Positions 3,983 to 60,706 of a stretch of DNA of 64,000 nucleotides are shown piece by piece (within the stretch, counting starts at the first letter, position 1; every line of letters starts with the position of its first letter). Where the stretch lies: assembly GCA_041389425.1 (NCBI GenBank), contig JAWKRX010000003.1:6597-70596 (forward strand). Direction: 5' to 3'. Below the pieces are notes generated by a model. That model made no database searches, was not told the DNA's origin, and worked only from the letters and a program-made list of their open reading frames with translations. Made by a program: the position numbers and the translations under genes. This DNA comes from Myxococcota bacterium. GTDB lineage: Bacteria > Myxococcota_A > UBA9160 > UBA4427.

Positions 3983-4783
3983 CTAACGACGTCGGTCCGT
4001 ACGCGGAAGGTCTTCACCCCAGACCTGCTCGAGTCTCTGCTGCCGGCCACAGCTCCATTTGTAGTAGGCGTACTGGACGGGGTGCATCTCGTGATAGTCC
4101 TGGTGGGACGCTTCGGCGGGGTGGAACGGGCCGGCTTCGAGCACCGGGGTCACGATCTCGAGCGCGCGGCGTGCTTCGATCGCGTCCCTGGATGCCTCGG
4201 CCTGGACGCGCTGGGTGGCGTCCCGGGCGAAGATGGCCGTCCGGTAGGCATCCCCCCGGTCGCAGCACTGGCCGCCCGGATCCGTCGGGTCGACGTTGTG
4301 CCAGAAGACTTCGAGGAGGGTTCCGTAATCGGTCTTCTGCGGGTCGTAGACGACCTCGACCGCCTCGTAGTGGCCGGTTCCGCCGGCGCTGACCTGGCGA
4401 TAGGTCGGATTCGGCAGCTGGCCGCCGGTGAAGCCGGAGGTCGCGCGAATCACCCCTTCGACCTCATCGAAGGCCTGCTCCATGCACCAGAAGCAGCCGC
4501 CGGCGAAGGTCGCGTACGCGCGCCGCTCATCGGAGGGTGGCGAGGCGGCGGGGGCCGCCAGTCCGCCCGGCTCCGTCTCGTGGTTCTGCGTCGCGGCGTA
4601 CTGCATCGGTGTCGACCGCTCGCGCAGCTCCGTGTCGCTCGGCTCGAGCTCGCCCGCGCTCTTCGACGTCGACCCGACACGCGGCGGGCCGGCGCCGGGA
4701 TCCGAGCACGCGACCGTGAACGCGCTGGCGAGAACGAGACCCGCGCAGGGCAGCATCGCCCGGAAGCTTCCGCTCGCGTTCAT
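3983..4783 (-). CDS. msrA: Peptide-methionine (S)-S-oxide reductase MsrA, predicted lipoprotein
   Basis: Catalytic GGCFWCMEQAF motif and MsrA fold motifs (GHYEAVEVVYDP, YHQDY-type tail). I chose the internal Met (MNASGSFRAMLPCAGLVLASAFTVAC, lipobox-like) because its ATG overlaps the upstream stop as ATGA at 4780-4783. Confidence 0.9.
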   Translation of the reverse strand: MNASGSFRAMLPCAGLVLASAFTVACSDPGAGPPRVGSTSKSAGELEPSDTELRERSTPMQYAATQNHETEPGGLAAPAASPPSDERRAYATFAGGCFWCMEQAFDEVEGVIRATSGFTGGQLPNPTYRQVSAGGTGHYEAVEVVYDPQKTDYGTLLEVFWHNVDPTDPGGQCCDRGDAYRTAIFARDATQRVQAEASRDAIEARRALEIVTPVLEAGPFHPAEASHQDYHEMHPVQYAYYKWSCGRQQRLEQVWGEDLPRTDRRR

Positions 4784-5532
4784 CGAAACGGCATCCAGAG
4801 CCCCATCGCGATCATCATGAGGTTCTCCGTCAGCGAGATGAAGCCGAGCGGCACGTTGCTCTCGCCCCCCACGCAGGCGCATTTCAGCTCGCGGCCGTCG
4901 ACATAGACCGCCTTCACGACCGATGCGGCGCCGACCGAACCGATGAAGAGCGCGATGGGCGCGGCGAGCCAGAGGAGCGCTCCCGCGATCATGAGGACGC
5001 CCGCCAAGGCTTCGGCGAAGGGATAGAGGTAGGCATACGGAACCCAGCGCCGGGCGAGCAGGTCGTAGCCCAGGAACATCGTCGAGAAGCGCTCGACGTC
5101 GCGCAGCTTCAGGAGCGCGAGGAGGGTCATCGAGGTGGCGACGAACGTCTCGAGCGTTCGAAGGCTCAGCGCGCTCCCGAATGCGTTCCAGCGCGTCGCC
5201 AGCGCGATCGCGAAGGCGATCGAGAACACGGCGATGATCGGTTGGTAGCGGGCCTCGCCCTCCTGCCTCACGGGCTCGCCGAGATGCTCGCGAAGAGCCT
5301 CGTATCCGCCGATCCGGCGGTCGCCGAGCCAGATCTGCGGAGTCGTCCCGACACCGTGCTCCTTTTGGAAGGCGTCGGTCTTCTCGCGCGACTCGAGCCA
5401 GCGATCGTCGATCTCGAAGCCCCGCCGCTCGAGCAGCTCCCTGGCCTTGAGGCCGTAGGGGCAGACATGGTCCGGCATCACCATGCGGTAGAGGGTCGCC
5501 TTGCGCGGCACGAGCGACTTCGATCCGCTCAC
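4780..5532 (-). CDS. Glutaredoxin-like domain fused to a MauE/DoxX-type membrane redox domain
   Basis: The N-terminal Grx fold has a monothiol CPYG in place of CPYC, plus TTPQIW and GGYEAL. The C-terminal part has ~4 TM helices and a membrane CAC motif (KCACVGG). The GTG start overlaps the upstream stop (GTGA at 5529-5532). Confidence 0.85.
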   Translation of the reverse strand: MSGSKSLVPRKATLYRMVMPDHVCPYGLKARELLERRGFEIDDRWLESREKTDAFQKEHGVGTTPQIWLGDRRIGGYEALREHLGEPVRQEGEARYQPIIAVFSIAFAIALATRWNAFGSALSLRTLETFVATSMTLLALLKLRDVERFSTMFLGYDLLARRWVPYAYLYPFAEALAGVLMIAGALLWLAAPIALFIGSVGAASVVKAVYVDGRELKCACVGGESNVPLGFISLTENLMMIAMGLWMPFR

Positions 5533-13958: not shown

Positions 13959-14594
13959 ATGAGGAATCGGATGGGGGAGCGGGGAGAGGGAGGCCGGAAC
14001 GAAGACGCGCCCTCGCGGTCGCCGGGCGGGATCGTGCGGATGGGCCTCTTCTTCTACGGGGCGATGGGGATCGCGGCGCTGCTCTGGCGGATGGCGACCC
14101 CCGGCGAGTCGATCCTCTACCCCTCCGCGGAAGCGGCGGCCCGGGCCTGGTCGCTTCCTGCGGCACTCGGCGCGGGCGTGGCCGCAGGACTGGTGGCGAT
14201 CGGGGTCTCGGAGGCGCTGACGCGCTGGACCGCGCTCGGGCGCGCGCTCTCGGATCTGCTGGCGGAGAGCATCGGGCCCCTCGATCGCGCCAACGCCTGG
14301 CTGCTCGCCCTCGCGAGCGGGCTCGCCGAGGAGATGTTCTTTCGCGGCGCGCTGCAGCCGCAGGTCGGGCTCCTGCTCGCGAGCCTGCTGTTCGGGGCGG
14401 CGCATTTCATGCCGCGCCGGGAGCTCGTGCTCTGGAGCGTCTTCGCGGTCCTGATCGGCCTCGGGCTGGGCGCGCTCTTCGAATGGACGGGGCAGCTCGC
14501 CGCGCCGGTCGCCGCCCACGTCCTCGTGAACGGCGTCAACCTGCCGCGGCTCGCGCGCCGTGCGAAGGGCGCGGGCTCAGTCGCAGAGGGCTAG
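13959..14594 (+). CDS. CPBP-family intramembrane glutamic endopeptidase (CAAX protease/Abi type)
   Basis: Motifs EEMFFRG and FGAAH sit in a polytopic membrane protein. The start may be a downstream Met or Val. Confidence 0.85.
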   Translation: MRNRMGERGEGGRNEDAPSRSPGGIVRMGLFFYGAMGIAALLWRMATPGESILYPSAEAAARAWSLPAALGAGVAAGLVAIGVSEALTRWTALGRALSDLLAESIGPLDRANAWLLALASGLAEEMFFRGALQPQVGLLLASLLFGAAHFMPRRELVLWSVFAVLIGLGLGALFEWTGQLAAPVAAHVLVNGVNLPRLARRAKGAGSVAEG

Positions 14595-51013: not shown

Positions 51014-51763
51014 TCAGCGGGACTCGGCCGTGCTCGGCGGGGCGACGGGTACGCTGAGTCCCCGTGGCAGCGATTCGGCGCTTCGGCGATAGCGCAGCTT
51101 CCAGCCGCCGAAGAGCGGGCTCTCGAGGGCGACCCATTCGTCTCCCTCCACGGCGTAGGCGAGGGTGATCGCGAGATCGTCGCCTTCGATCCGATACCGC
51201 TCGACCGGAATCTCGCGCGCGCCGATCTCGACGGTGCCCCGGCCGAGCGAGCGCGTCTGGACGGCGACGTACTCGCCCGTCTGGGAGTTGAGCAGTTTCC
51301 GGCGCTTCAGGATCTCGCGCTTGTCCCAGTAGGCGAAGGTGCCGACGCATTCGTCGATGCGCTGGCTTCCGAGCCGGCTCGCCACGGCGAAGCCGCTCGG
51401 CTCGGCGCGCCCCGAGACGTGATCGGGCTTGCCGTTCTGACGGGTCGTCGACTCGATCGATTGCAGGCAGCCGCCGCGCCACTGCTCGACGTTGCGATGG
51501 TCGTAGGTGATCGTCTTGAGCCGCAGGAGCGTGAATTCGAAGGCGGCGCGGATCTCGACGCGCAGACCGTCGTCGCTCGGCTGCAGATCGAAGCGCTGGT
51601 ATCCGATCGGGCGATCGTCGAGGAAAACGTCGAAGCGCAGCTCGCGCGCGGGCTCGGGGATCGCCGCGGCTCGGGCCGGGAGCACCGCCTGGGCGACCAC
51701 CGCCGCTCCGAACGCCAGAACGAGGAGGCGGCCCGAGGCCGGGTTTCCGAATCGCGACCGCAT
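51014..51763 (-). CDS. Secreted protein of unknown function
   Basis: 249-aa tail of a longer ORF. ATG follows AAGGAG. Signal peptide is GRLLVLAFGAAVVAQAVLPARAAA. The beta-rich composition suggests a barrel or sandwich fold. Confidence 0.7.
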   Translation of the reverse strand: MRSRFGNPASGRLLVLAFGAAVVAQAVLPARAAAIPEPARELRFDVFLDDRPIGYQRFDLQPSDDGLRVEIRAAFEFTLLRLKTITYDHRNVEQWRGGCLQSIESTTRQNGKPDHVSGRAEPSGFAVASRLGSQRIDECVGTFAYWDKREILKRRKLLNSQTGEYVAVQTRSLGRGTVEIGAREIPVERYRIEGDDLAITLAYAVEGDEWVALESPLFGGWKLRYRRSAESLPRGLSVPVAPPSTAESR

Positions 51764-52039
51764 GCTGGCTCCTTCTCTTCTTCCCTGCTCTCTCCATCGG
51801 GCGCCGCCGGCGACTTCGAGAGCCCCGATCGCCGATCCCGTCGGCCGCGATGCGACAAGTTGACGCAGCGGTCGGTTCCCTGGGCTGGGATAGATTCGGC
51901 GGCGCGCGCGCGGCCGATCGGGCGCGGGTGCCCTCGAGAACCGGGTGGAAACCGAGTGGGATGCGAGCGCGAGCCGGAGGAAAGCCGCGTGGGAGACCGG
52001 GTGCAAGATCATGGGCAGGAGCGGACCCGCGGCCGCGCG

Positions 52040-52636
52040 GTGCGCCGGAGCGGGCAGCGGGCAGGGCGCCGATCGCAGGCAGTCCTCCTTCCTCTTTTTC
52101 ATGGCGTGCTGGCCGGCGCCGTTCTCGGCCTGCCGAGCTCGGCCGGGGCCGACACCCTCGCCGGCAATCTCCCGGCGTCCGCGACGGCAGCCCGCCTGCT
52201 CTTCCTCGACTGCTCGGACGACGGTGCCGGCGCGCCGCTCTCGGCGACCGTCCAGGTCCGCGACCTCGCGCCGGTCGCGGCGCCGCTGATCAGTGTTCAG
52301 CTGCGCAAGGGGACGGCCGCGACGAACTCGACGGACGCCGTCGACGGCGACGGCGGCGCGAGTCCGCTGGTCTTCGTGAACGGCGGCTCGGGGCGCTACG
52401 ACGTCTACGTCGACAAGACCGAAGCGGGGGAGGAAGCGTTCGAGGTCGTCGCCCAATGCTGGACGGGCGCAGGCGGAACGGGCGCGGCGACCGGCACCGC
52501 CCTCTCCTCCGCGACGGGCACGCCGGTCCCGCTCGCGACCGGGCCCGGCCTCGCGGCGCTCGCCGCGGGCCTCTTCGAAGTCGCGCGCCGCAAGCTGCGC
52601 CGGGGGCGCCGCGATCAAAGCCCCGTGTCGGCCTAG
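52040..52636 (+). CDS. Small secreted protein with an exosortase-type C-terminal anchor (VPLxx-CTERM-like)
   Basis: The frame was chosen on GC3 and composition. The tentative GTG start gives the signal peptide VRRSGQRAGRRSQAVLLPLFHGVLAGAVLGLPSSAGA. The C-terminus reads TPVPLATGPGLAALAAGLFEVARRKLRRGRR. Start is uncertain. Confidence 0.45.
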   Translation: MRRSGQRAGRRSQAVLLPLFHGVLAGAVLGLPSSAGADTLAGNLPASATAARLLFLDCSDDGAGAPLSATVQVRDLAPVAAPLISVQLRKGTAATNSTDAVDGDGGASPLVFVNGGSGRYDVYVDKTEAGEEAFEVVAQCWTGAGGTGAATGTALSSATGTPVPLATGPGLAALAAGLFEVARRKLRRGRRDQSPVSA

Positions 52637-52679
52637 GCCGCCCGTACCTCGGCCTGGATCGCCCCGCGACCGTCTTCGT

Positions 52680-53246
52680 TCATTGATTCGGCGGGCGCGT
52701 CGCGAGCTTGCGCTGCAGGGTCCGGCGATGCATGCCGAGCTGGCGCGCCGCCTCCGAGACGTTGCCCCCGCAATCGCTGAGCACTCGCTGGATGTGCTCC
52801 CATTCGACGCGATGCAGGCTCGGGACCACCGCTCCCGGCGCGGCGGCGCCGCCGTCGCCGCCGCTGCGCGGCTCGCCCGCCCGGGACGCGAAGGCGAGCA
52901 GGATCTCGTCGGCGTCTGCGGGCTTGGTCAGGTAGTCGATCGCGCCGCGCCGAACGGCCTCGACCGCCGTCGCGATGCTCCCGTAACCCGTCAAGACGAC
53001 GCAGGCGATCGCGGGATCGAAGGCGAGGATCCGGTCGAGCAGATCGATGCCCGAGCCGTCGCCGAGGCGCAGATCGAGGACGGCACGCGCGGGATGGAAG
53101 CGCTTCAGGACCTCCGCCGTCTCCGCGAGCGACGCGGCCCCCTCGACCTGCAGGCCGCGATCGCGAAAGGCGCGGCAGAGGCGAGTGCGATAGGCGTCGT
53201 CGTCGTCGACGACGAGCAGGCGGATGGGATCCTGCTCAGGCGACAT
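52680..53246 (-). CDS. regA: RegA/PrrA/ActR-family redox response regulator
   Basis: REC domain (LLVVDDD...DLRLGDGSG...KP) plus the near-invariant RegA HTH NVSEAARQLGMHRRTLQRKL. Confidence 0.9.
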   Translation of the reverse strand: MSPEQDPIRLLVVDDDDAYRTRLCRAFRDRGLQVEGAASLAETAEVLKRFHPARAVLDLRLGDGSGIDLLDRILAFDPAIACVVLTGYGSIATAVEAVRRGAIDYLTKPADADEILLAFASRAGEPRSGGDGGAAAPGAVVPSLHRVEWEHIQRVLSDCGGNVSEAARQLGMHRRTLQRKLATRPPNQ

Positions 53247-54657
53247 CGCGCCCTCCCGTCGCCGCGCGCGCTTCGGCTCGCGCCGCCGCGCCGTTCGGCG
53301 CTTCCGCGATCGGCCAGGCGACGGTCGCCGTCGTGCCCGTACCGGGCTCGGACTCGAATCGCAGCGTTCCGCCGAGGCGCTCGAGATGGAGATGGACGAC
53401 GAAGAGCCCGAGGCCCGTGCCGCGCCCCGGCGCACGCGTCGTGAAGAAGGGCTCCCCGACATGGCGCAGGGTCGCCTCGTCCATGCCGGTTCCGCGGTCG
53501 CGCACGCGCGTCACGAGCTGCTCGCCTTCGCGGCGGATCTCGACGTCGACGCTCGTGTCCGGGCGCGAAGCGTCGAGGGCATTGCGCAGGATCGGGCCGA
53601 CGACCTCGCAGAAATCGATCCGCGCGCCGGCGAAGGCTCCGGGCGCGAGCTGGACGGTGATCCGCACGCGCTCGCTCTCGCCGGCGTCGAGACCGTCGCG
53701 CAGGGCCGCCTCGAGCTCGGCCGCGGCGATCGGGAGCTCGGCTTCGGCGACCTCATGGGCGGCGCGCGCGCGCATGCGGTCGAGGATCGCGCGGCAGCGT
53801 TCGACCTCCGTGCGCAGGAGCTTGGCGTCTTCGGCGAGGCCGGAGGGCGGGGCGGCCGCATGCGCCGACTGCGCGCTGCGCTCGAGCTCCCGGGCGATCA
53901 CGGCGATCGTTCCGAGCGGCGAGCCGAGCTCGTGGGCGGCGCCGGCGGCGAGCGTCGTCAGCGAGGCGAGGCGGGCGTTGCGGGCGGCGACCTCGGTCAA
54001 ACGGCGCATCTCCTGCTCGCGCTCGCCGAGGGTCTCGATGATGCGGGTCATCACGAAGGTCATGACCGCGGCGACGACGACGACGGCGACCCACATGCCG
54101 AGGGCGTGGAGCCCGATCGACGAGCCGGGCAGCGCCGGCGCGTGCCAGAAATGCGCGGGTGTCGACCACGGAAAGACGAGCGCATAGAAGCCCGCGCAGG
54201 CGATCGCGACGGACCAGGTCGCCGCTCGGCTCCCCGTCATCGCCGCGAGCACGATCTGGATGATGTAGAGCGCGCTGAACGGGCTGTCGGGCCCGCCGCT
54301 CCAGGCGAGCAGGAGCGTGAAGAGGGCGGCGTCGAAGACGAGGATCGGGACCACGAGCCGCGCGGCCCGCGCCGGCGAGCGTGCGCGCAGCGCCATCCAG
54401 ATCCCGTTCGTCGCCGCGATCAGGGCCGGGACGAGCCAGAGCCGCTCGTAGGGCAGTGGCAGGGCGAGCCCGGCCCAGGCGATCGCGATCGCCCCGATCT
54501 GCCCCGCGGCGGACAGGAATCGCAGGGGCACCAGCCAGCGCAGCACGGCGTCGGCCCGCGACGGGACGGCCGCCGGCGGCGTCGGCGGCATCGGCGGCGT
54601 GGACGGCGAGGTCGGTCGAGGCGAAAGAGCGGCGTCGGGGACAGGGGACCGCTTCAT
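53236..54657 (-). CDS. regB: RegB/PrrB/ActS-family redox-sensing histidine kinase
   Basis: Six-TM N-terminal domain with GGPDSPF (the RegB GGxxNPF quinone-site region), H-box AAHELGSPLG and a C-terminal ATPase domain. It overlaps regA by 11 nt. The start is taken at MKRSPV. Confidence 0.88.
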   Translation of the reverse strand: MKRSPVPDAALSPRPTSPSTPPMPPTPPAAVPSRADAVLRWLVPLRFLSAAGQIGAIAIAWAGLALPLPYERLWLVPALIAATNGIWMALRARSPARAARLVVPILVFDAALFTLLLAWSGGPDSPFSALYIIQIVLAAMTGSRAATWSVAIACAGFYALVFPWSTPAHFWHAPALPGSSIGLHALGMWVAVVVVAAVMTFVMTRIIETLGEREQEMRRLTEVAARNARLASLTTLAAGAAHELGSPLGTIAVIARELERSAQSAHAAAPPSGLAEDAKLLRTEVERCRAILDRMRARAAHEVAEAELPIAAAELEAALRDGLDAGESERVRITVQLAPGAFAGARIDFCEVVGPILRNALDASRPDTSVDVEIRREGEQLVTRVRDRGTGMDEATLRHVGEPFFTTRAPGRGTGLGLFVVHLHLERLGGTLRFESEPGTGTTATVAWPIAEAPNGAAARAEARAATGGRDVA

Positions 54658-54725
54658 CGAGCGCAGGCTACTCGCCGGGCGGGAGCGCTGCAATTTCGAA
54701 GCGGAGCGCGGAGGCGCGCGCTGCT

Positions 54726-54740
54726 GCGTCAATTTGTCGC
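54726..54740. promoter_or_regulatory. RegA/RegR-box-like element (GCGTCAATTTGTCGC) in the regB-tlpA divergent intergenic region
   Basis: Matches 13 of 15 positions of my recollection of the RegR box GNGRCRTTNNGNCGC. A related TGCAATTTCGA lies at 54689-54699. Confidence 0.25.
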
Positions 54741-54815
54741 GGCCGATCGAGGCCGGGGCGGGGGAGTGCTAAGGCATCCGGGCCGCCGGTGCATCGACCG
54801 CTCCGGCCCTCCGGA

Positions 54816-55532
54816 ATGGATCCCGCCTTGCCCCCTCGCCGCGCCCACATCTCCCGGATTGCGTCCCGGATCGCCAGCCGGTCGTCGACCCGGCGCGATC
54901 GCCGCCGGCCCTTCGGCGCGGCGGTCGCCCGCGCGCTCGCGATCGCGGGGATCATGGCCTTCGCGGTCGCGGGGCTCGGCGCTGCGGCGCGGGCCGGATC
55001 GCTGGAGTCGATCCGAGCGGAATCGACGCAGGCGGAGGCGGGCCGGCGCGCCCCGGCATGCGTGCTCGCGGCCCTCGCGCCCGCGGCGGATGGATTCCTC
55101 GCGCCCCGCGAACGGGACTTTGCCGGGCGGGTCGTGCTGGTCGACTTCTGGGCCTCCTGGTGTCCGACCTGCGAGCGCGCCTTCCCTTTTCTCGATGCCC
55201 TCGCACGGGCGCTTGCGGGGCGGGGGCTCGAGGTCGTCGCCGTGAACCTCGACTCGGATCCGCGGGATGCGATCGAATTCCTGGCGGGGCGCGACGTCGG
55301 ATTCGAGGTCGTGCACGATCCCAGCGGCGATTGTCCCCGGGCCTTCGGTCTCGTCGGCATGCCGTCTGCGTACCTGATCGATGCGGACGGCCGCATCGTC
55401 GAGGTGACGCGCGGATTCCACAAGCGCGAGGCGCTCGCGCTCCGCGCGCGGATCGAGGCCCTGCTCGGCGAGGCGCCGGCCGGCGAAGGCGATCCCGCGC
55501 TCGCGCGCGTCGCGAGCCCGCCGCCGCCGTGA
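54816..55532 (+). CDS. TlpA/ResA-like periplasmic thiol:disulfide oxidoreductase
   Basis: VVLVDFWASWCPTC thioredoxin motif and an N-terminal signal-anchor (ALAIAGIMAFAVAGLGAAARA). The start at 54816 is tentative. Confidence 0.85.
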   Translation: MDPALPPRRAHISRIASRIASRSSTRRDRRRPFGAAVARALAIAGIMAFAVAGLGAAARAGSLESIRAESTQAEAGRRAPACVLAALAPAADGFLAPRERDFAGRVVLVDFWASWCPTCERAFPFLDALARALAGRGLEVVAVNLDSDPRDAIEFLAGRDVGFEVVHDPSGDCPRAFGLVGMPSAYLIDADGRIVEVTRGFHKREALALRARIEALLGEAPAGEGDPALARVASPPPP

Positions 55533-55798
55533 CGGGCGCGCGCGCGAGCGTGATCGCGGTTCGGCGAGGCGGTCTGCGCGGGCAGGTGTGCGTGCGCATC
55601 GTCGCGCTCGGACTCGTGCTCCTGCTCGGCGGCGCTTGTCGCACCGTCGAGCCCTGGGAGCGCGCGCAGCTCGCCGCCCCGCGCATGCAGCCCGAGCCCC
55701 ATCCCGCGCATGCCGCTTTCCTCGATCACGTTCGCCAGAGCCGCGAAGCCGCGACGACCGGCGACGGCTCGGGCGGAGGGGGCTGTGGTTGTTACTAG
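55529..55798 (+). CDS. DUF4266-type small lipoprotein
   Basis: Lipobox LLLGGAC, then VEPWERAQLA...M and the family-typical Gly/Cys C-terminus GGGGCGCY. The GTG overlaps the tlpA stop (GTGA at 55529-55532). Confidence 0.8.
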   Translation: MTGARASVIAVRRGGLRGQVCVRIVALGLVLLLGGACRTVEPWERAQLAAPRMQPEPHPAHAAFLDHVRQSREAATTGDGSGGGGCGCY

Positions 55799-58526
55799 AG
55801 CGCTGCGCGCCTGGCTGCGCAGCCTCGGCGCACCCCGGCCGCAGAAGCGGCGATCGCCGCGTTGGCGTTTGCGTTTGCGTTGGCGTTCGCGGGCGCGGGC
55901 GCCGGGCGGCGCCGAGCGTCCGGCGCCGAGCGCGAGCCTGCGTGCGCTGACGAGCGCCGCCCTCGCGCTGCCCGGGCTCGCCGCTTCGGTCCTGCCGCCG
56001 GCGACGGCCGGTGCCGAGCCGCGCGACGAGGTCCGGCTCCACTACGGCCGCTACGAAGAGGACGATCGAAAGCTCCCGGGCGTCACGAGCCGCTTCGATC
56101 CGATCGACGTCGACTACCTGAACGTCGGCGCGACGAGCTCGCTCCTCGACCGGCTCCATCTCTCGCTCGACTACTACCAGGACACCTGGTCGGGCGCGAC
56201 GCCGATCACGACCGCCCCGCGCTCGCTCTTCGGCAATCGCGCGAGCGCGCCCGACGGCGTCTCCGGCGCGACGCCCTTCATCGAGGGCGAGCTCTTCTTC
56301 GACGGCGATCTGCGCGTGCTCGAATCCGATCGCTTCGGGACGCTGAGCGGCCGCCGCGATCGTGGACCGGTGCACACGCTCTCTTCCGCCTCCCCCGAGA
56401 CGCGCAAGGAGGTGGATCTCGGCCTCGAATACGAGTGGGACGACGCGGCGCTCGGCGCCGTCGGCGGGGTCTCGATCGAGCCCGACTATCTCTCCGGCTT
56501 CGGCCGCCTCTCGGGCCGCATCGATTTCGACCAGAAGCGGACGACGCTCGAGCTCTCCGCCGGCTTCTCGCGCAGCGAGATCGACGCGCGCTTCGATCAC
56601 GACGCCGTTCCCTACATCGATTTCTCCGCCTACGACGGGGACGTCCGCAATCGCGCCTCCGGCTCGCCGGTCCTGCGCGAGAAGCGCTCGGACTGGACGC
56701 TCAGCGCGGGCTTGAGCCGGATCCTGCGCCCGAGCACCCGGCTCGAGACCTCGCTCCAGCTCCGGCGCAGTGAAGGCTTCCTCGCGAATCCCTACAAGGT
56801 CGTCCAGGTCGCCTTCATCGATCCGGAGCAGCAATTCCTCGCGCCGCCCGGCGGCTTCTACGGCGACGTCCATGCGCTGGTCGAGCGCCGGCCGGGCAAT
56901 CGGCACCAGCTGACGTGGTCGAGCCGGCTGCTGCAGGACTTCGCCGCGCTCGATGCGGCGGCGAGCCTGCGATACGTCCTGCACCACGACGATTGGGGCA
57001 TCGACGCCCACACGCTCGAGGCCCAGTGGCGCCAGCAGCTCGGAAAGACCTGGCTGGTGACGCCGCGCCTTCGTTATTTCACCCAGGGCGCCGCGGATTT
57101 CTACCGCCCGCTCGTGATCACGCAGCAGGCCCACCTGCGGATCGAGTCCGATCCCGACGGCAATCTGATCGGGTTGACGCCCTTCTCCCATGCACTCCTG
57201 CCGGGCGAGTACTCCGCCGACCATCGGCTCTCGGGATTCGGCGTGCTCTCCGGAGGCATCGTCGTCCAGAAGCGGATCGCCCGTGCGTTCGTCTTCGAGC
57301 TCGGATTCGAGTACGCGCGCCACGCGGGCAGCTGGCGCCTGGGCGGGGGCGGCGAGGGGGATTTCTCGAACTTCGACGCATGGATGCTCGACGCCGGGCT
57401 CAGGATCGACTTCGCGACGCTGGCGCTCGGCCGCTCCGCCGGTCGCGATTGGATCCTGGCCGACGGCGATGCCGCCGGAGCGGCGGCCTCTGCACCGGGC
57501 GCGGGCGGCGAGGCAGGGCACGGCGCGGGCCATGTCGGGCCGGGCGCGGCAGCGCATGCGATGGCCCATGCGCCGGCGGGCGTGATGTTCGCGCATGCGC
57601 TCCCGCAGGCCGGCGATTTCATGCTCGGCTACCGCACGATGTACATGCGCCGCGCCGGCGATTTCAAGCGGGGCTCGGGCGAGCCTTCGGATCCCGAGCT
57701 CGTCGCCAACGCCTGCGGTGCCGCGGGCTGCAGCGCGGTCGCCGACTCGATGTCGCATCAGATGCACATGCTCGATTTGATGTTCGCGCCGACGAGCTGG
57801 CTGACGCTGATGGCGATGCCGAGCTACATCGACAACGAAATGCGTCTGCGCGCGCCCACCGGCGCCGTCCCCGACGTCCACGGCAACCACGATCGCCACG
57901 CCACCGGCGGCTTCGGCGATACCCGCTTCGGTGCCCTGCTGCGCCTCTTCCATCGCGAGCGGCATCATCTCCAGCTCGGCCTCGTCACGAGCGCGCCGAG
58001 CGGCGATACGAGCGTGCGCTTCCGCCGCGACCACGGCATCGAACGCGGTTTTCTCCACTACGACATGCAGCTCGGCAGCGGCACCTGGGATTTCCTGCCG
58101 AGCCTCACCTATCTCGGCTCGAGCGGCCGCCTCCGCTTCGGCGCGCAGGCGACGGGGATCGTGCGGATGGAGGGCGAGGGGCCGACGGGCTACGCCCTCG
58201 GCGACGAGATCCAGGTCAGCGGTTGGGGCGGCTTCGCGCTCACCGACTGGCTCGCCGGGACTCTGCGCGGCATCTACACACGCCAGGGTCGCATCCACGG
58301 CCGCTTCGATCGGCCGAGCATCGTGCGGACGCCGGGCGACGTCCCCGCGAACGCCGGCGGCCGGCTCTTCGACCTCGGCATCGGGCTCGAGCTCCGCGTA
58401 CCGCGCGGCGCCTTCGAGGGGGTCGTGATCTCGGCCGAATGGCTCCAGCCGCTGGCCGAGGACTGGAACGGCTACCAGCTCGAGCGCACGGGCACCCTCG
58501 CGGCGAGCGTGGGGATGTCGTTCTGA
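55785..58526 (+). CDS. DUF3570-type outer-membrane barrel fused to a second barrel-like domain (913 aa)
   Basis: GTG after GGCGGAGGGGG. The N-terminal half (RLHYGRYEEDD ... LRIDF) resembles DUF3570. A Gly/Ala/His/Met linker follows, then a second domain ending in an OMP-like terminal ...VGMSF. It contains DTWSGAT at 56181-56201. Confidence 0.8.
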   Translation: MVVTRALRAWLRSLGAPRPQKRRSPRWRLRLRWRSRARAPGGAERPAPSASLRALTSAALALPGLAASVLPPATAGAEPRDEVRLHYGRYEEDDRKLPGVTSRFDPIDVDYLNVGATSSLLDRLHLSLDYYQDTWSGATPITTAPRSLFGNRASAPDGVSGATPFIEGELFFDGDLRVLESDRFGTLSGRRDRGPVHTLSSASPETRKEVDLGLEYEWDDAALGAVGGVSIEPDYLSGFGRLSGRIDFDQKRTTLELSAGFSRSEIDARFDHDAVPYIDFSAYDGDVRNRASGSPVLREKRSDWTLSAGLSRILRPSTRLETSLQLRRSEGFLANPYKVVQVAFIDPEQQFLAPPGGFYGDVHALVERRPGNRHQLTWSSRLLQDFAALDAAASLRYVLHHDDWGIDAHTLEAQWRQQLGKTWLVTPRLRYFTQGAADFYRPLVITQQAHLRIESDPDGNLIGLTPFSHALLPGEYSADHRLSGFGVLSGGIVVQKRIARAFVFELGFEYARHAGSWRLGGGGEGDFSNFDAWMLDAGLRIDFATLALGRSAGRDWILADGDAAGAAASAPGAGGEAGHGAGHVGPGAAAHAMAHAPAGVMFAHALPQAGDFMLGYRTMYMRRAGDFKRGSGEPSDPELVANACGAAGCSAVADSMSHQMHMLDLMFAPTSWLTLMAMPSYIDNEMRLRAPTGAVPDVHGNHDRHATGGFGDTRFGALLRLFHRERHHLQLGLVTSAPSGDTSVRFRRDHGIERGFLHYDMQLGSGTWDFLPSLTYLGSSGRLRFGAQATGIVRMEGEGPTGYALGDEIQVSGWGGFALTDWLAGTLRGIYTRQGRIHGRFDRPSIVRTPGDVPANAGGRLFDLGIGLELRVPRGAFEGVVISAEWLQPLAEDWNGYQLERTGTLAASVGMSF

Positions 58527-58558
58527 CGCGCGGAGGCACAGCCGCCGGCGGCCGGCGC

Positions 58559-59467
58559 GTGCGGCGCTTCCGCGCCATGGGCTCGCCCTGCGAGATCCAG
58601 ATCGAGCCGGGCGCCGCGCACGGGGCCGCGCAGGACGCGCGGGCCATCGACGCCGCGCTCGCGGCGGCGATCGCCGAGGTCGAGCGGCTCGAGGCCCGTT
58701 ATTCGCGCTATCGCGACACGAGCGACCTCGCGCAGATCAATCGCGTCGCGGCCCGGGGCGGGACGCTCGAGGTGGATCCGGAGACGGCGGGTCTGCTCGA
58801 TTACGCGGCGACCTGTCACGCAGAGAGCGACGGACTCTTCGACATCACCTCGGGCATCCTGCGCCGCGCATGGCGCTTCCAGGAAGGGCGTCTGCCGGCC
58901 GCGGAGGAGGTCGAGGCGCTGCTGGGCCGCGTCGGATGGCATCGGCTCGCATGGCGATCGCCGCGGCTCGAATTCGGGACGCCCGGCCTCGAGCTCGACT
59001 TCGGCGGCATCGTCAAGGAATACGCAGCGGATCGCGTCGCCGGCCTGCTCCAGGCGGCGGGCATGCGACACGCGCTCGTGAATCTCGGGGGCGACATCCG
59101 GGCCGCCGGCCCGCGCGCGGACGGCAGCGCCTGGCAGATCGGGATCCGGGACCCGCAGCGGGCGGGCGAGGTCCTGCGGCGCGTCGCTCTGCGCGAGGGC
59201 GCGCTCTCCACGAGCGGCGACTACGAGCGCTGCATCGAGATCGACGGCGTGCGCTACGGCCACGTGCTCGATCCCCGCACCGGCTGGCCCGTTCGCTTCA
59301 TGGCCTCCGCGAGCGTGCTCGCGCCGCTCTGCGTCGTCGCCGGCAGCGCCTCGACGATCGCACTCCTGCGCGCCGAGCAGGGCCCGGCCTGGCTCGAGGC
59401 CCTCGGCCTGCCCTGCCTCTGGGTCGACGTCGAGGGGCGGCTGGGCGGATCGCTCGCCGGCGCTTGA
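58559..59467 (+). CDS. apbE: FAD:protein FMN transferase ApbE
   Basis: FRAMGSPCEIQI, SDLAQINR, FDITSG, DFGGIVKEYA and STSGDYER motifs. The start could be GTG 58559 or ATG 58577. No signal peptide is visible with either. Confidence 0.88.
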   Translation: MRRFRAMGSPCEIQIEPGAAHGAAQDARAIDAALAAAIAEVERLEARYSRYRDTSDLAQINRVAARGGTLEVDPETAGLLDYAATCHAESDGLFDITSGILRRAWRFQEGRLPAAEEVEALLGRVGWHRLAWRSPRLEFGTPGLELDFGGIVKEYAADRVAGLLQAAGMRHALVNLGGDIRAAGPRADGSAWQIGIRDPQRAGEVLRRVALREGALSTSGDYERCIEIDGVRYGHVLDPRTGWPVRFMASASVLAPLCVVAGSASTIALLRAEQGPAWLEALGLPCLWVDVEGRLGGSLAGA

Positions 59468-59680
59468 AGGATTTCGTGCTCCGGATCTCGCGGGGAGGCG
59501 CGATGCGCACGACCTGCTGCGGTGTTGCCGTGCGGTGTCGGCTTCGCTGCCTGCTGCGGAATGCCGAGCCAATTCTTCCCTCGGCGATTGCTGACACAAG
59601 CACGACTCGGTGGGCCACTCATTCCCAGACGCGAGCGGATCCCGATGCTTCGGGAGGCCGACTCCGCGCGGAGGTTCGCG

Positions 59681-60706
59681 ATGGCCATCTTCGGCGCTTG
59701 GACTCAGGACGTCGCGGTCGATCTCGGCTGTTCGGCGGTGCGTGTCTACGTCCGTGGCAAGGGTCTCCTCGCCGTCGAGCCGAATCTCGTGGCGGCGCGC
59801 AAGAGCGGGCCGAAATGCGGCGAGGTGCTGGCGGTCGGTGCGGAGGCGGCGCAGATGATCGGCCGGACGCCGCAGGAAGTCGCGGTGGTTCGCCCGGTGC
59901 GCGGCGGCGCGATCGCCGATCTCGATTGCATGGAGGCGATGCTTCGCCATCTCGCCTTCGAGACGGGCTTTCTCGGTGCGCTCCGCCGGCCCCGGCTCAC
60001 GGTGCCGGTGCCCCTCGATCTCTCGCCCGTCGAGCGCCGCGCGGTCCAGGAATGCGGCCGCCAGGTCGGTGCGCGGGAGGTCCGGATCCTGCCGAAGGTC
60101 GTCGCGGCGGCCATCGGCCTCGGCCTCTCCGAGGAGCGGCCGCAGGGGCGCTTCCTGCTCGACATCGGCGGCGGAACGACCGAGGCGGCCGTCGTCTCGC
60201 TCTCGGGCGTGGTGACCTCGCGAACGCTCCGGGTCGGCGGCTCGAGCCTGAACGACGCGCTGCAGGCGTACGTCCGCAAGAAGTTCAATCTCCTGATCGG
60301 CGACGAGACGGCGGAGCGTCTCAAGGTCGTGCTCGGCAGCGCCTATCCCTCGGACTCGATGCGCAGGCTCGAGGTGCGGGGGCGCGATCTGATCTCCGGT
60401 GTGCCGAAGGCGGTCGAGATCGGCTCGGAAGAGACGCGGGAGGCGCTCGAGGAGTCGGTCGCGGAGATCGTGGCCGTCGTGAGCGAGCTGCTCGAGCAGA
60501 CGCCGCCCGAGGTCGCGAGCGACATCTTCGCGGAGGGGCTGGTGCTGATCGGCGGCGGCTCGCTGCTGGGTCAGCTCGATCTTCGCTTGCGTGAGGCGAC
60601 GGGCCTCGTCGCGGTGCGTGCGGACGACTGCACGAATGCCGTCGTGATGGGCGCGGGCAAGATCCTCGAAGATCCCGAGAGCTACGCCGGGCTGTTCCCG
60701 GCCTGA
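59681..60706 (+). CDS. Divergent MreB/actin-like ATPase (orphan; no mreCD follows)
   Basis: ATG after GCGGAGG. Actin-fold phosphate and adenosine motifs: VAVDLGCSAVRVY, LLDIGGGTTEAAVVSL, LIGGGSLL. 341 aa. Confidence 0.85.
   Translation: MAIFGAWTQDVAVDLGCSAVRVYVRGKGLLAVEPNLVAARKSGPKCGEVLAVGAEAAQMIGRTPQEVAVVRPVRGGAIADLDCMEAMLRHLAFETGFLGALRRPRLTVPVPLDLSPVERRAVQECGRQVGAREVRILPKVVAAAIGLGLSEERPQGRFLLDIGGGTTEAAVVSLSGVVTSRTLRVGGSSLNDALQAYVRKKFNLLIGDETAERLKVVLGSAYPSDSMRRLEVRGRDLISGVPKAVEIGSEETREALEESVAEIVAVVSELLEQTPPEVASDIFAEGLVLIGGGSLLGQLDLRLREATGLVAVRADDCTNAVVMGAGKILEDPESYAGLFPA

Follow-up and report, generated by a model that had tools for sequence, protein, structure and literature searches.

The window, a 64,000-nucleotide stretch of contig JAWKRX010000003.1 from a Myxococcota bacterium, contains, within a locus of about 72-75% G+C, four co-directional genes that encode a TlpA-like periplasmic redoxin, a small DUF4266 lipoprotein, a DUF3570 β-barrel protein and the flavin transferase ApbE (Table 1). 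A pair of genes resembling regB and regA is transcribed divergently from them, and a further gene, termed gene A here, is set apart from tlpA by that pair. The closest relatives of these locus genes are found in metagenome-assembled genomes (MAGs) of Myxococcota. In our opinion, the cluster is probably a long-form member, lacking DsbD, of the system described by Méheust et al. (2021; eLife 10:e66878, PMC8238504), and its barrel protein is probably flavinylated by the adjacent ApbE. The original prediction, made from the DNA letters alone, had proposed exactly this division of labor, with ApbE acting on DUF3570 and with TlpA and DUF4266 as thiol partners. The idea is correct but has been known since 2021; thus, the interpretation is supported but is not new, because Méheust et al. 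had already reported it.

All four genes are seen in the reading frames, with a GTGA overlap between the first two at 55529-55532. The predicted 14-nt overlap of the DUF4266 and barrel genes holds if GTG 55785 is the start codon of the latter; the public call (P0121), however, starts at TTG 55875, which gives a protein of 883 residues. The gap that precedes apbE measures 32 nt from GTG 58559 or 50 nt from ATG 58577. A scan of positions 51700-59700 found no sigma-70 promoter, and terminator-like matches there were at background level.

The expectation that these genes travel together was borne out. Across 80 genome loci, the order tlpA-DUF4266-DUF3570-apbE proved near-universal, and a further 80 metagenome loci, seeded with short-form DUF3570, showed it too. 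Among the genome loci, where only those with enough flanking sequence were scored for each gene, a second barrel follows DUF3570 in 75 of 75, apbE lies directly downstream of the barrel gene in 59 of 68, a tlpA-like gene is present in 66 of 75, and a DUF4266 gene is present in 58 of 76 as judged by tblastn, the sensitivity of which is limited here. A "fused MFS/spermidine synthase" gene (NF037959) was seen 3' of apbE in locus L019 (13710-15263) and in 24 other loci, many of them gammaproteobacterial.

Paired flavinylation motifs within a published system

The motif D-T-W-S-G-A-T was found where the original prediction had placed it, read as gac acc tgg tcg ggc gcg acg. A second motif, overlooked at that time, follows 24 residues after the first, the two SGAT cores occupying residues 136-139 and 160-163 of the 913-residue protein. 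A third site, which reads H-T-L-S-G-A-S in some homologues, is degenerate (S-S-A-S) in the window protein. Conservation of the motifs among DUF3570 homologues is pronounced: motif 1, in the form Q-D-[TS]-W-[ST]-G-A-[ST], is present in 118 of 120 close homologues, and motif 2 is present in about 110 of the 120, at a spacing of 22-33 residues from motif 1. An exhaustive search of 1.84 billion representative proteins returned 1210 relatives at E<=1e-3. Among these, motif 1 recurs as D-[TS]-[WYFI]-S-G-A-[ST] in short (~420 residues), long (~850-950 residues) and giant (1000-2800 residues) members.

Could the motif and the gene arrangement be coincidental? A single [ST]GA[ST] does arise readily in a protein rich in Gly, Ala, Ser and Thr: 20,000 shuffles of the barrel protein gave a mean of 0.18 such sequences per shuffle, and one was present in 17% of them. 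Two full D-x-x-[ST]GA[ST] motifs, however, arose in just 5e-5 of the shuffles. Together with the family-wide conservation and the conserved operon, this leaves coincidence with practically no likelihood; the conservation has already refuted it.

Several of the giant relatives (P0379, P0396, P0411, P0392, P0387 and P0417 are examples of the class) carry R-D-T-Y-S-G-A-T near residue 80, with the best match to the barrel hundreds to thousands of residues later. This suggests that these proteins may accommodate giant insertions or passenger domains.

The study of Méheust et al. began from "orphan" apbE genes, which were found to adjoin DUF3570. The DUF3570 protein of Chlorobium luteolum was covalently flavinylated upon co-expression with its cognate ApbE, and loss of flavinylation required mutation of both of its conserved [S/T]GA[S/T] sites (PMC8238504). 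The same study counted 543 clusters of ApbE, DUF3570, a thioredoxin-like protein and DUF4266, of which 227 contain DsbD and 316 do not; the VIT1 iron transporter was noted in 25 clusters. Its authors also pointed out that DUF4266 has a CXC at its C-terminus and put forward an electron-transfer system, a hybrid of thioredoxin and flavin, the purpose of which they left open (PMC8238504). For this reason, the statement in the original prediction that the DUF3570/DUF4266 pair has no assigned function does not hold for the modification, although it stands for the physiological role.

Membership of the window cluster is supported by its parts. The DUF3570 region matches positions 2-424 of the 427 in the PF12094 profile. 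The redoxin matches Redoxin, AhpC-TSA and Thioredoxin_8; PF13899, cited by Méheust et al., is not among its matches. In a scan of the window that was not exhaustive, no DsbD (PF02683) was found among the neighboring genes, and neither DsbD nor CcdA among the membrane proteins scanned; nor was DsbD found among the conserved neighbors of the 80 loci. Because DsbD was not found at the locus, the cluster is counted with the 316 clusters that lack it.

The two thiol partners are conserved as well. The tlpA-like product is a TlpA/ResA/DsbE-like periplasmic thiol-disulfide oxidoreductase with a WCPTC active-site motif and an N-terminal hydrophobic membrane anchor, and W-C-x-x-C is kept in every matched homologue. 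The name TlpA should be read as a family label only: the protein is a generic redoxin that reaches 57 bits with the Bradyrhizobium-type equivalog model NF047696, for which the cut-off is 230. The DUF4266 protein combines a lipobox-like LLGGAC, a conserved V-E-P-W-E-R and a Gly-rich tail that ends in GGGGCGCY. Its homologues end in C-x-C-x in 60 of 61 cases, and a lipobox-like motif is present in 47 of the 61.

Table 1. Positions and supporting evidence for features of the locus. Coordinates are those of the window unless a locus label is given.
Feature	Position	Strand	Evidence or remark
tlpA-like gene	54816-55532	+	PF08534 Redoxin E 4.6e-21, WCPTC
DUF4266 lipoprotein gene	55529-55798	+	PF14086 E 1.2e-18
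DUF3570 two-barrel gene, 913 residues	55785-58526	+	PF12094 E 3.9e-87
Signal-peptide-like segment SLRALTSAALALPGLAASVLPPATAGA	55938-56015	+	alignments
Flavinylation motif 1, D133-T-W-S-G-A-T139	56181-56201	+	predicted FMN acceptor Thr139
Flavinylation motif 2, D157-G-V-S-G-A-T163	56253-56273	+	predicted FMN acceptor Thr163
Degenerate third site H-T-L-S-S-A-S	56373-56393	+	alignments
Disordered Gly/Ala/His-rich linker	57462-57560	+	pLDDT <50 at P0121 residues 530-562
Second barrel, COG4313/PF13557-like	57561-58523	+	Foldseek, homologues; C-terminal Phe
apbE	58559 (GTG) or 58577 (ATG) to 59467	+	PF02424 E 3.1e-74
RegA-like response regulator gene	52680-53246	-	PF00072 and PF02954
RegB-like membrane histidine kinase gene	53236-54657	-	Pfam HisKA and HATPase_c; start at an ATG kept in relatives (alignment)
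Gene A (P0241, 215 residues)	51989-52636	+	tblastn homologues upstream of tlpA
RegA-type palindromic box GCGTCAATTTGTCGC	54726-54740	.	regB-tlpA divergent intergenic region
Element related to GCGTCAATTTGTCGC	54688-54698	.	regB-tlpA intergenic region
Conserved GGAGTGCTA	54763-54771	.	regB-tlpA intergenic region
Second box copy GCGTCAACTTGTCGC (- strand), one mismatch	51852-51866	.	between DUF6134 and gene A
DUF2946 genes before stand-alone barrel 2	L002 7466-7861; L084 4434-4829; L085 4429-4845; L087 4459-4836		
FMN, flavin mononucleotide; pLDDT, predicted local distance difference test.

An exported substrate and an ApbE without an export signal

The placement of ApbE in an envelope module requires qualification. 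Linkage of apbE to DUF3570 is confirmed, but this ApbE lacks a signal peptide and is no envelope protein by its sequence. It is otherwise a complete member of its family, matching positions 1-264 of the 266 in PF02424 and 13 solved ApbE sequences at E-values down to 7e-37. Its fold begins at residue 7 (V-R-R-F-R-A-M-G-S-P-C-E-I-Q), and crystallized ApbEs in their mature, signal-less form align through residues 30-45 with its residues 26-40. No signal peptide or lipobox was recognized on the window protein, and the peptide encoded in frame upstream is not hydrophobic.

The same property extends to the relatives. In 44 of 65 long-form loci, apbE allows no more than 30 residues before A-M-G, and in 34 of 65 no more than 15. 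The start is often preceded, just a few codons away, by a stop in the same frame; locus L039, for example, reads stop-D-K-M-E-F-Y-Q-H-G-F-K-A-M-G-T. The remaining long-form apbE genes are in high-GC loci, and the frame that stays open upstream of them is read from the 3' end of the barrel gene, out of frame with it. Of 18 short-form loci, 13 show a stop codon in frame 13-26 codons ahead of the ApbE match; another allows 36, and the other four, which are high in GC, have long open upstream frames. Since most short-form loci show it too, leaderlessness is a property of the DUF3570-cognate ApbE clade and is not confined to the long form.

The substrate, on the other hand, appears to be exported: it has a signal-peptide-like segment at its N-terminus and is a predicted outer-membrane barrel. 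The core ALTAAALALPGL of this segment forms near-invariant alignment columns in long and short forms, in proteins that are just 30-50% identical. Such conservation is unusual for a signal peptide, and the core could be a docking element for ApbE. Export through the Tat pathway was considered as a way round the mismatch of compartments and was rejected, there being no twin-arginine motif beside the hydrophobic core. A GC-rich repeat, cgttggcgtttgcgtttgcgttggcgttcgcg (55855-55890), encodes R-W-R-L-R-L-R-W-R-S-R, which is part of a long positively charged region before the signal peptide of the barrel protein.

Because this clade of ApbE has no signal peptide while its substrate is exported, the transfer most likely takes place in the cytoplasm, on the precursor and before Sec export; in our judgment the case for this is evenly balanced. 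Modification of a non-native chain in the cytoplasm appears feasible, since both C. luteolum partners were made in the cytoplasm of Escherichia coli and the published flavinylated DUF3570 was recovered from inclusion bodies (PMC8238504).

Two other explanations address the same mismatch. First, the enzyme might be exported despite the missing signal peptide, by piggy-backing, by a signal that was not recognized or from a start codon wrongly assigned, and would then flavinylate the barrel protein in the periplasm, as happens with NqrC and RnfG. This view accords with the fact that every well-studied ApbE substrate receives its flavin outside the cytoplasm, and the frame upstream of apbE is indeed long and open in high-GC Myxococcota loci. 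Nevertheless, we regard it as improbable: in the majority of both long-form and short-form loci, as counted above, a stop in frame is reached within about 30 codons of the fold start; the open high-GC frames overlap the barrel gene and mostly encode no hydrophobic segment near the ApbE fold; and the window N-terminus aligns with the start of mature ApbE structures.

Second, the leaderless ApbE might serve some other, cytoplasmic substrate, the motifs of long-form DUF3570 being unmodified relics. The mismatch between the compartments of ApbE and barrel would be explained at once. This is very improbable, however, given that the linkage of apbE to DUF3570 is tight across phyla, that the motifs are strongly conserved, that a cognate pair of the family has been shown to work (PMC8238504), and that the loci contain no other conserved candidate substrate with [ST]GA[ST].

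The ApbE clade differs from characterized enzymes in one further respect. Where solved ApbEs have A-D-x-L-S-T, the clade has C-v-v-A-G-S-A-S-T-I; A-G-S-A-S-T is present in the window ApbE and in 96 clade members, while the Asp is present in 1vrm and 5mgy. We take this Asp to be a Mg ligand in Ftp of T. pallidum.

The second barrel, gene A and the acceptor

The description of the DUF3570 product as a large barrel protein proved incomplete: it is a barrel protein, but one with two barrels, PF12094 spanning just residues 53-531 of 913. An AlphaFold2 (AF2) model built with 108 homologues contains two β-barrels and a disordered linker (pLDDT 86.5; predicted template-modeling score 0.84), and H-x-x-H-x-H is conserved in the linker consensus. 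The last ~350 residues, which form the second barrel (barrel 2), match no Pfam family at E<=10, no NCBIfam model and no sequence in the PDB. Barrel 2 nevertheless has hundreds of homologues, which are either stand-alone "transporter" proteins of ~360 residues, many of them matching PF13557, or C-terminal halves of DUF3570 proteins; the homologues that match PF13557 include many at 40-47% identity. Foldseek aligned barrel 2 with Pput2725 (4rl8) at a target-normalized template-modeling (TM) score of 0.71 and a root-mean-square deviation (rmsd) of 5.8 Å over 321 columns, and with FapF (5o65/5o67) at TM 0.64-0.71. Matches of the whole model, most of them TonB-dependent receptors and MtrB (6r2q_B, TM ~0.2), had rmsd >20 Å; they are generic and were not used for functional assignment.

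Four elements of barrel 2 are conserved in fused and stand-alone members alike: APAGVM, a G-C-x4-C pair, M-x-M-x-M-H-M-L-D-L-M-Y-A-P and H-x-T-G-G-x-G-D-T. With few exceptions, the 120 best DUF3570 homologues measure 820-936 residues and thus carry the same fusion. The long form is widespread: these proteins come from Myxococcota, Methylococcales, Nitrosomonas, Thiobacillus, Chromatiales and Burkholderiales, with a concentration in methanotrophs, Nitrosomonas, Thiobacillus and Myxococcota. Two loci in which DUF3570 and barrel 2 appeared as separate genes (L001 1-2568 and L003 6318-9005, in two to three open reading frames (ORFs)) were set aside as probable frameshifts in long-read MAG contigs, because the pieces abut or overlap and end in mid-domain.

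In the AF2 model, a strand of 22 residues (P0121 residues 94-115) carries motif 1 toward its end; hydrophobic and polar residues alternate over its first eight positions, and the remainder are polar. Motif 2 lies in an excursion of ~50 residues after this strand, and the degenerate third site opens the next strand. Outer-membrane proteins usually have a periplasmic N-terminus and short periplasmic turns. When this topology is applied to the strand order of the model, the flavin sites probably occupy the distal end of strand 3 and the long loop that follows, in the lumen or on the outer side of the barrel.

Gene A is probably a sixth conserved member of the module, because homologues sit directly upstream of tlpA in most related loci: ORF clustering around the 80 loci and tblastn placed them there in 56 of 66 loci with enough flank. 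Its product is a secreted protein with two conserved Cys residues, predicted to form a β-sandwich preceded by a signal helix (AF2 pLDDT 83); in this lineage, a C-terminal transmembrane helix and an Arg-rich tail are added. It belongs to no Pfam or NCBIfam family, and Foldseek returned weak matches of the PPC/collagen-binding type and no cupredoxin-like match; the generic fold offers no clue to its function. A preprint by Haft on C-terminal sorting signals describes JDVT-CTERM proteins, homologous over their full length, that adjoin DUF4266, DUF3570 and TlpA genes.

Several other genes accompany the module or lie elsewhere in the window. A DUF6134 gene (51014-51808, minus strand) diverges from gene A and has the same position in Myxococcota loci L009-L011. 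A secreted protein of ~250-270 residues that belongs to no family, with a predicted mature N-terminal His (A-H-T...I-T-H-G-C; for example, L025 6182-7003 and L072 7589-8350), occurs with the module in 49 of 80 loci, sometimes fused to a gene A domain; the window does not encode it. A PDB sequence search with the "domain B" protein gave no match. The window also encodes an Rce1-like CPBP intramembrane protease (13959-14594, plus strand) and a glutaredoxin-MauE fusion protein (4780-5532, minus strand); Rce1-like CPBP proteins are the family that Haft proposes as myxosortases.

The motifs of barrel 2 invite the question of what the flavins might reduce. All four stand-alone homologues of barrel 2 that were inspected have a DUF2946 gene directly before them (Table 1), two of these four being above the Pfam threshold and two weak. 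A gene for the copper-storage protein Csp was seen nearby in L087. DUF2946 proteins have been tied to copper-responsive operons, for example bp2923-bfrG of Bordetella, which functions in outer-membrane uptake (PMC9426467). A census of copper genes near the module gave Csp in 2 of 80 loci and CopA in 0 of 80; as a lone support for copper, this was rejected as too weak. A role of the module in the reduction and uptake of a metal, possibly copper, is put forward here tentatively, as possible rather than probable.

The same flavinylated module could have a job that does not involve metal, conveying the electrons of periplasmic thiols to an acceptor that is organic or an oxidant, or serving oxidative folding or repair at the outer membrane. 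Examples of such acceptors would be a quinone or aromatic compound that enters through a COG4313-type channel, or reactive oxygen or chlorine species. COG4313 channels have been linked to uptake of hydrophobic molecules (PMC4493636), and barrel 2 has that fold; moreover, copper genes are seldom adjacent, and control of the RegBA type is generic redox control. On the other hand, the conserved motifs rich in Met or His, the conserved Cys pair and the DUF2946 genes that accompany stand-alone members point to a metal over a hydrocarbon, and Pfam does not place barrel 2 of the window in PF13557. This reading, too, is a doubtful one.

Regulation, proposed mechanism and relation to known systems

The pair that adjoins the module is divergent from it, as predicted, and its best NCBIfam matches are the expected ones, but the scores fall short of the curated cut-offs: the histidine kinase scores 205 bits with ActS/PrrB/RegB (NF033792, cut-off 350), and the response regulator, which has a receiver and a Fis-type helix-turn-helix domain, 192 bits with ActR/PrrA/RegA (NF033791, cut-off 250). 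According to work attributed to Swem et al., RegB reportedly has a quinone-site heptapeptide GGxxNPF and a redox-active Cys after the H-box. The window kinase has GGPDSPF, with Ser for the Asn of the heptapeptide, and its Cys288 is 46 residues past His242.

GCGTCAATTTGTCGC is identical in six related loci (L005 and L007-L011), the flanking DNA of which has diverged, and it is the sole match of the window to GCGNCWWWWWGNCGC, with 0 expected. The box upstream of gene A differs by one mismatch in L007 and by two in L005. GCGTCAATTTGTCGC agrees with the RegA motif of R. capsulatus, SSGNVRDNHYSNCSS, at every one of 15 positions and with the RegR box at 13 of the 15, both as quoted in PMC5506826. 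In other lineages, mostly without adjacent regBA, the module has the perfect palindrome GCGACAATTTGTCGC or a close variant upstream of it: in Gammaproteobacteria (L012, L019, L022, L026, L028, L029, L031 and L081), in Nitrosomonas (L066, L072 and L080, two copies ~127 bp apart) and in Betaproteobacteria (L036 and L043). In 13 of the 80 loci, genes resembling regBA adjoin the module, arranged in several ways. Control of the module by a RegA-type regulator is likely, because matching or related boxes lie upstream across lineages and regBA-like genes adjoin the module in these 13 loci.

The best reading of the locus is a RegBA-controlled, thiol-fed, flavin-bearing module for electron transfer at the outer membrane. 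Under this reading, ApbE would move FMN from flavin adenine dinucleotide (FAD) onto Thr139 and Thr163, acting in the cytoplasm on the unfolded precursor, which would then undergo Sec export and insertion by the β-barrel assembly machinery. The membrane-anchored redoxin would be reduced by DsbD or CcdA encoded elsewhere and, together with the DUF4266 lipoprotein, whose flexible GGGGCGCY tail bears the CXC pair, would hand reducing equivalents to the barrel flavins. These would reduce an external or periplasmic acceptor, which the fused barrel, with its His-rich linker, Cys pair and Met-rich motif, might handle jointly with the gene A protein. The acceptor that we would guess first is a metal ion such as Cu(II), or Fe(III), which would be imported after reduction. 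Expression would be set by the adjacent RegB/RegA-like system through the GCGTCAATTTGTCGC boxes.

It should be noted that several points weigh against this scheme. Only the order of the strands and the lengths of the loops in a predicted model indicate where the flavin sites lie with respect to the membrane; copper neighbors are rare around the module; and, because Gly replaces a conserved Asp in the clade, the chemistry may differ from that of characterized ApbEs. We know of no direct precedent, open to checking, for the export of a chain that is already flavinylated. The assignment of the regulators as RegB and RegA is below curated cut-offs, and in GC-rich DNA the consensus for RegA is very degenerate. 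A still more specific proposal, that these proteins are outer-membrane flavin conduits flavinylated in the cytoplasm by a leaderless ApbE clade that possibly docks on the conserved signal-peptide core, with the fused barrel and the gene A protein of the long form coupling Cu(II) or Fe(III) reduction to uptake under RegBA-type control, must be considered rather unlikely to hold in its entirety. If true, it would provide the first demonstration that a protein is covalently flavinylated before it crosses the inner membrane, as well as a route of reductive metal acquisition in methanotrophs, nitrifiers and Myxococcota.

The core claim adds a member to a known system, and it is the details that make the physiological role more testable. 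The combination of an exported substrate with an ApbE that has no export signal constitutes a compartment paradox, which bears on where flavinylation occurs and on how the supply of periplasmic FAD is bypassed. The recurrent fusion of DUF3570 to a barrel with metal-type motifs, together with gene A, points toward the target of the flavins, and the conserved RegA-type operator offers a regulatory handle. The hosts of the long form are chiefly methane and ammonia oxidizers, the key enzymes of which need copper. To judge from the searchable literature, several features appear undescribed, namely the two-barrel fusion, the clade of leaderless ApbEs, gene A and the operator; in the text of Méheust et al. 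(2021), the words "beta-barrel," "PF13557," "RegB," "cytosolic ApbE" and "cytosolic flavinylation" are missing, and neither the fusion nor the barrel topology is discussed.

Comparison with known systems places each component. The porin-cytochrome conduits of the MtrAB type share the concept of a redox carrier that, with an outer-membrane barrel, moves electrons across or at the outer membrane; in MtrAB, however, hemes are held by a threaded cytochrome, whereas here the flavins are predicted to be covalently bound to the barrel itself, and the likeness is one of analogy only. Pput2725 (COG4313) and FapF resemble the C-terminal barrel in fold, but that barrel of the window has no significant sequence or Pfam match, carries Met, His and Cys motifs and is fused to DUF3570. 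Operons of the bp2923-bfrG type are linked to DUF2946, and each stand-alone homologue of barrel 2 that was inspected is likewise preceded by a DUF2946 gene; the window lacks such a gene, and the link to copper is indirect. With RegB/RegA and its relatives (PrrB/PrrA, ActS/ActR and RegS/RegR), the window pair shares domain architecture, best family matches and a box of the GCG-N-C-N5-G-N-CGC type; it differs in having GGPDSPF for GGxxNPF, in scoring under the equivalog cut-offs and in its host, which is Myxococcota-like and not an alphaproteobacterium.

NqrC and RnfG have in common with the window protein the D-x-x-[ST]-G-A-[ST] acceptor, a phosphoester-linked FMN (predicted for the window protein) and an enzyme of the same family. 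Their FMN-binding domains, as Bertsova and colleagues are said to have found in 2013, are flavinylated by a periplasmic ApbE. The substrate is thus an FMN_bind domain served by a periplasmic enzyme in one case, and in the other a β-barrel that would be served by a leaderless ApbE with Gly in place of the conserved Asp. The DUF3570 (ABB24424.1) and ApbE (ABB24423.1) of C. luteolum represent the same four families in the same clustering as in the window, and the clusters of Méheust et al. likewise combine two [S/T]GA[S/T] acceptor motifs near the DUF3570 N-terminus with a C-terminal CXC in DUF4266. Their DUF3570 proteins, however, are of ~420 residues, whereas that of the window reaches 913 through its fused second barrel, and the window adds gene A and probable RegBA-type control.

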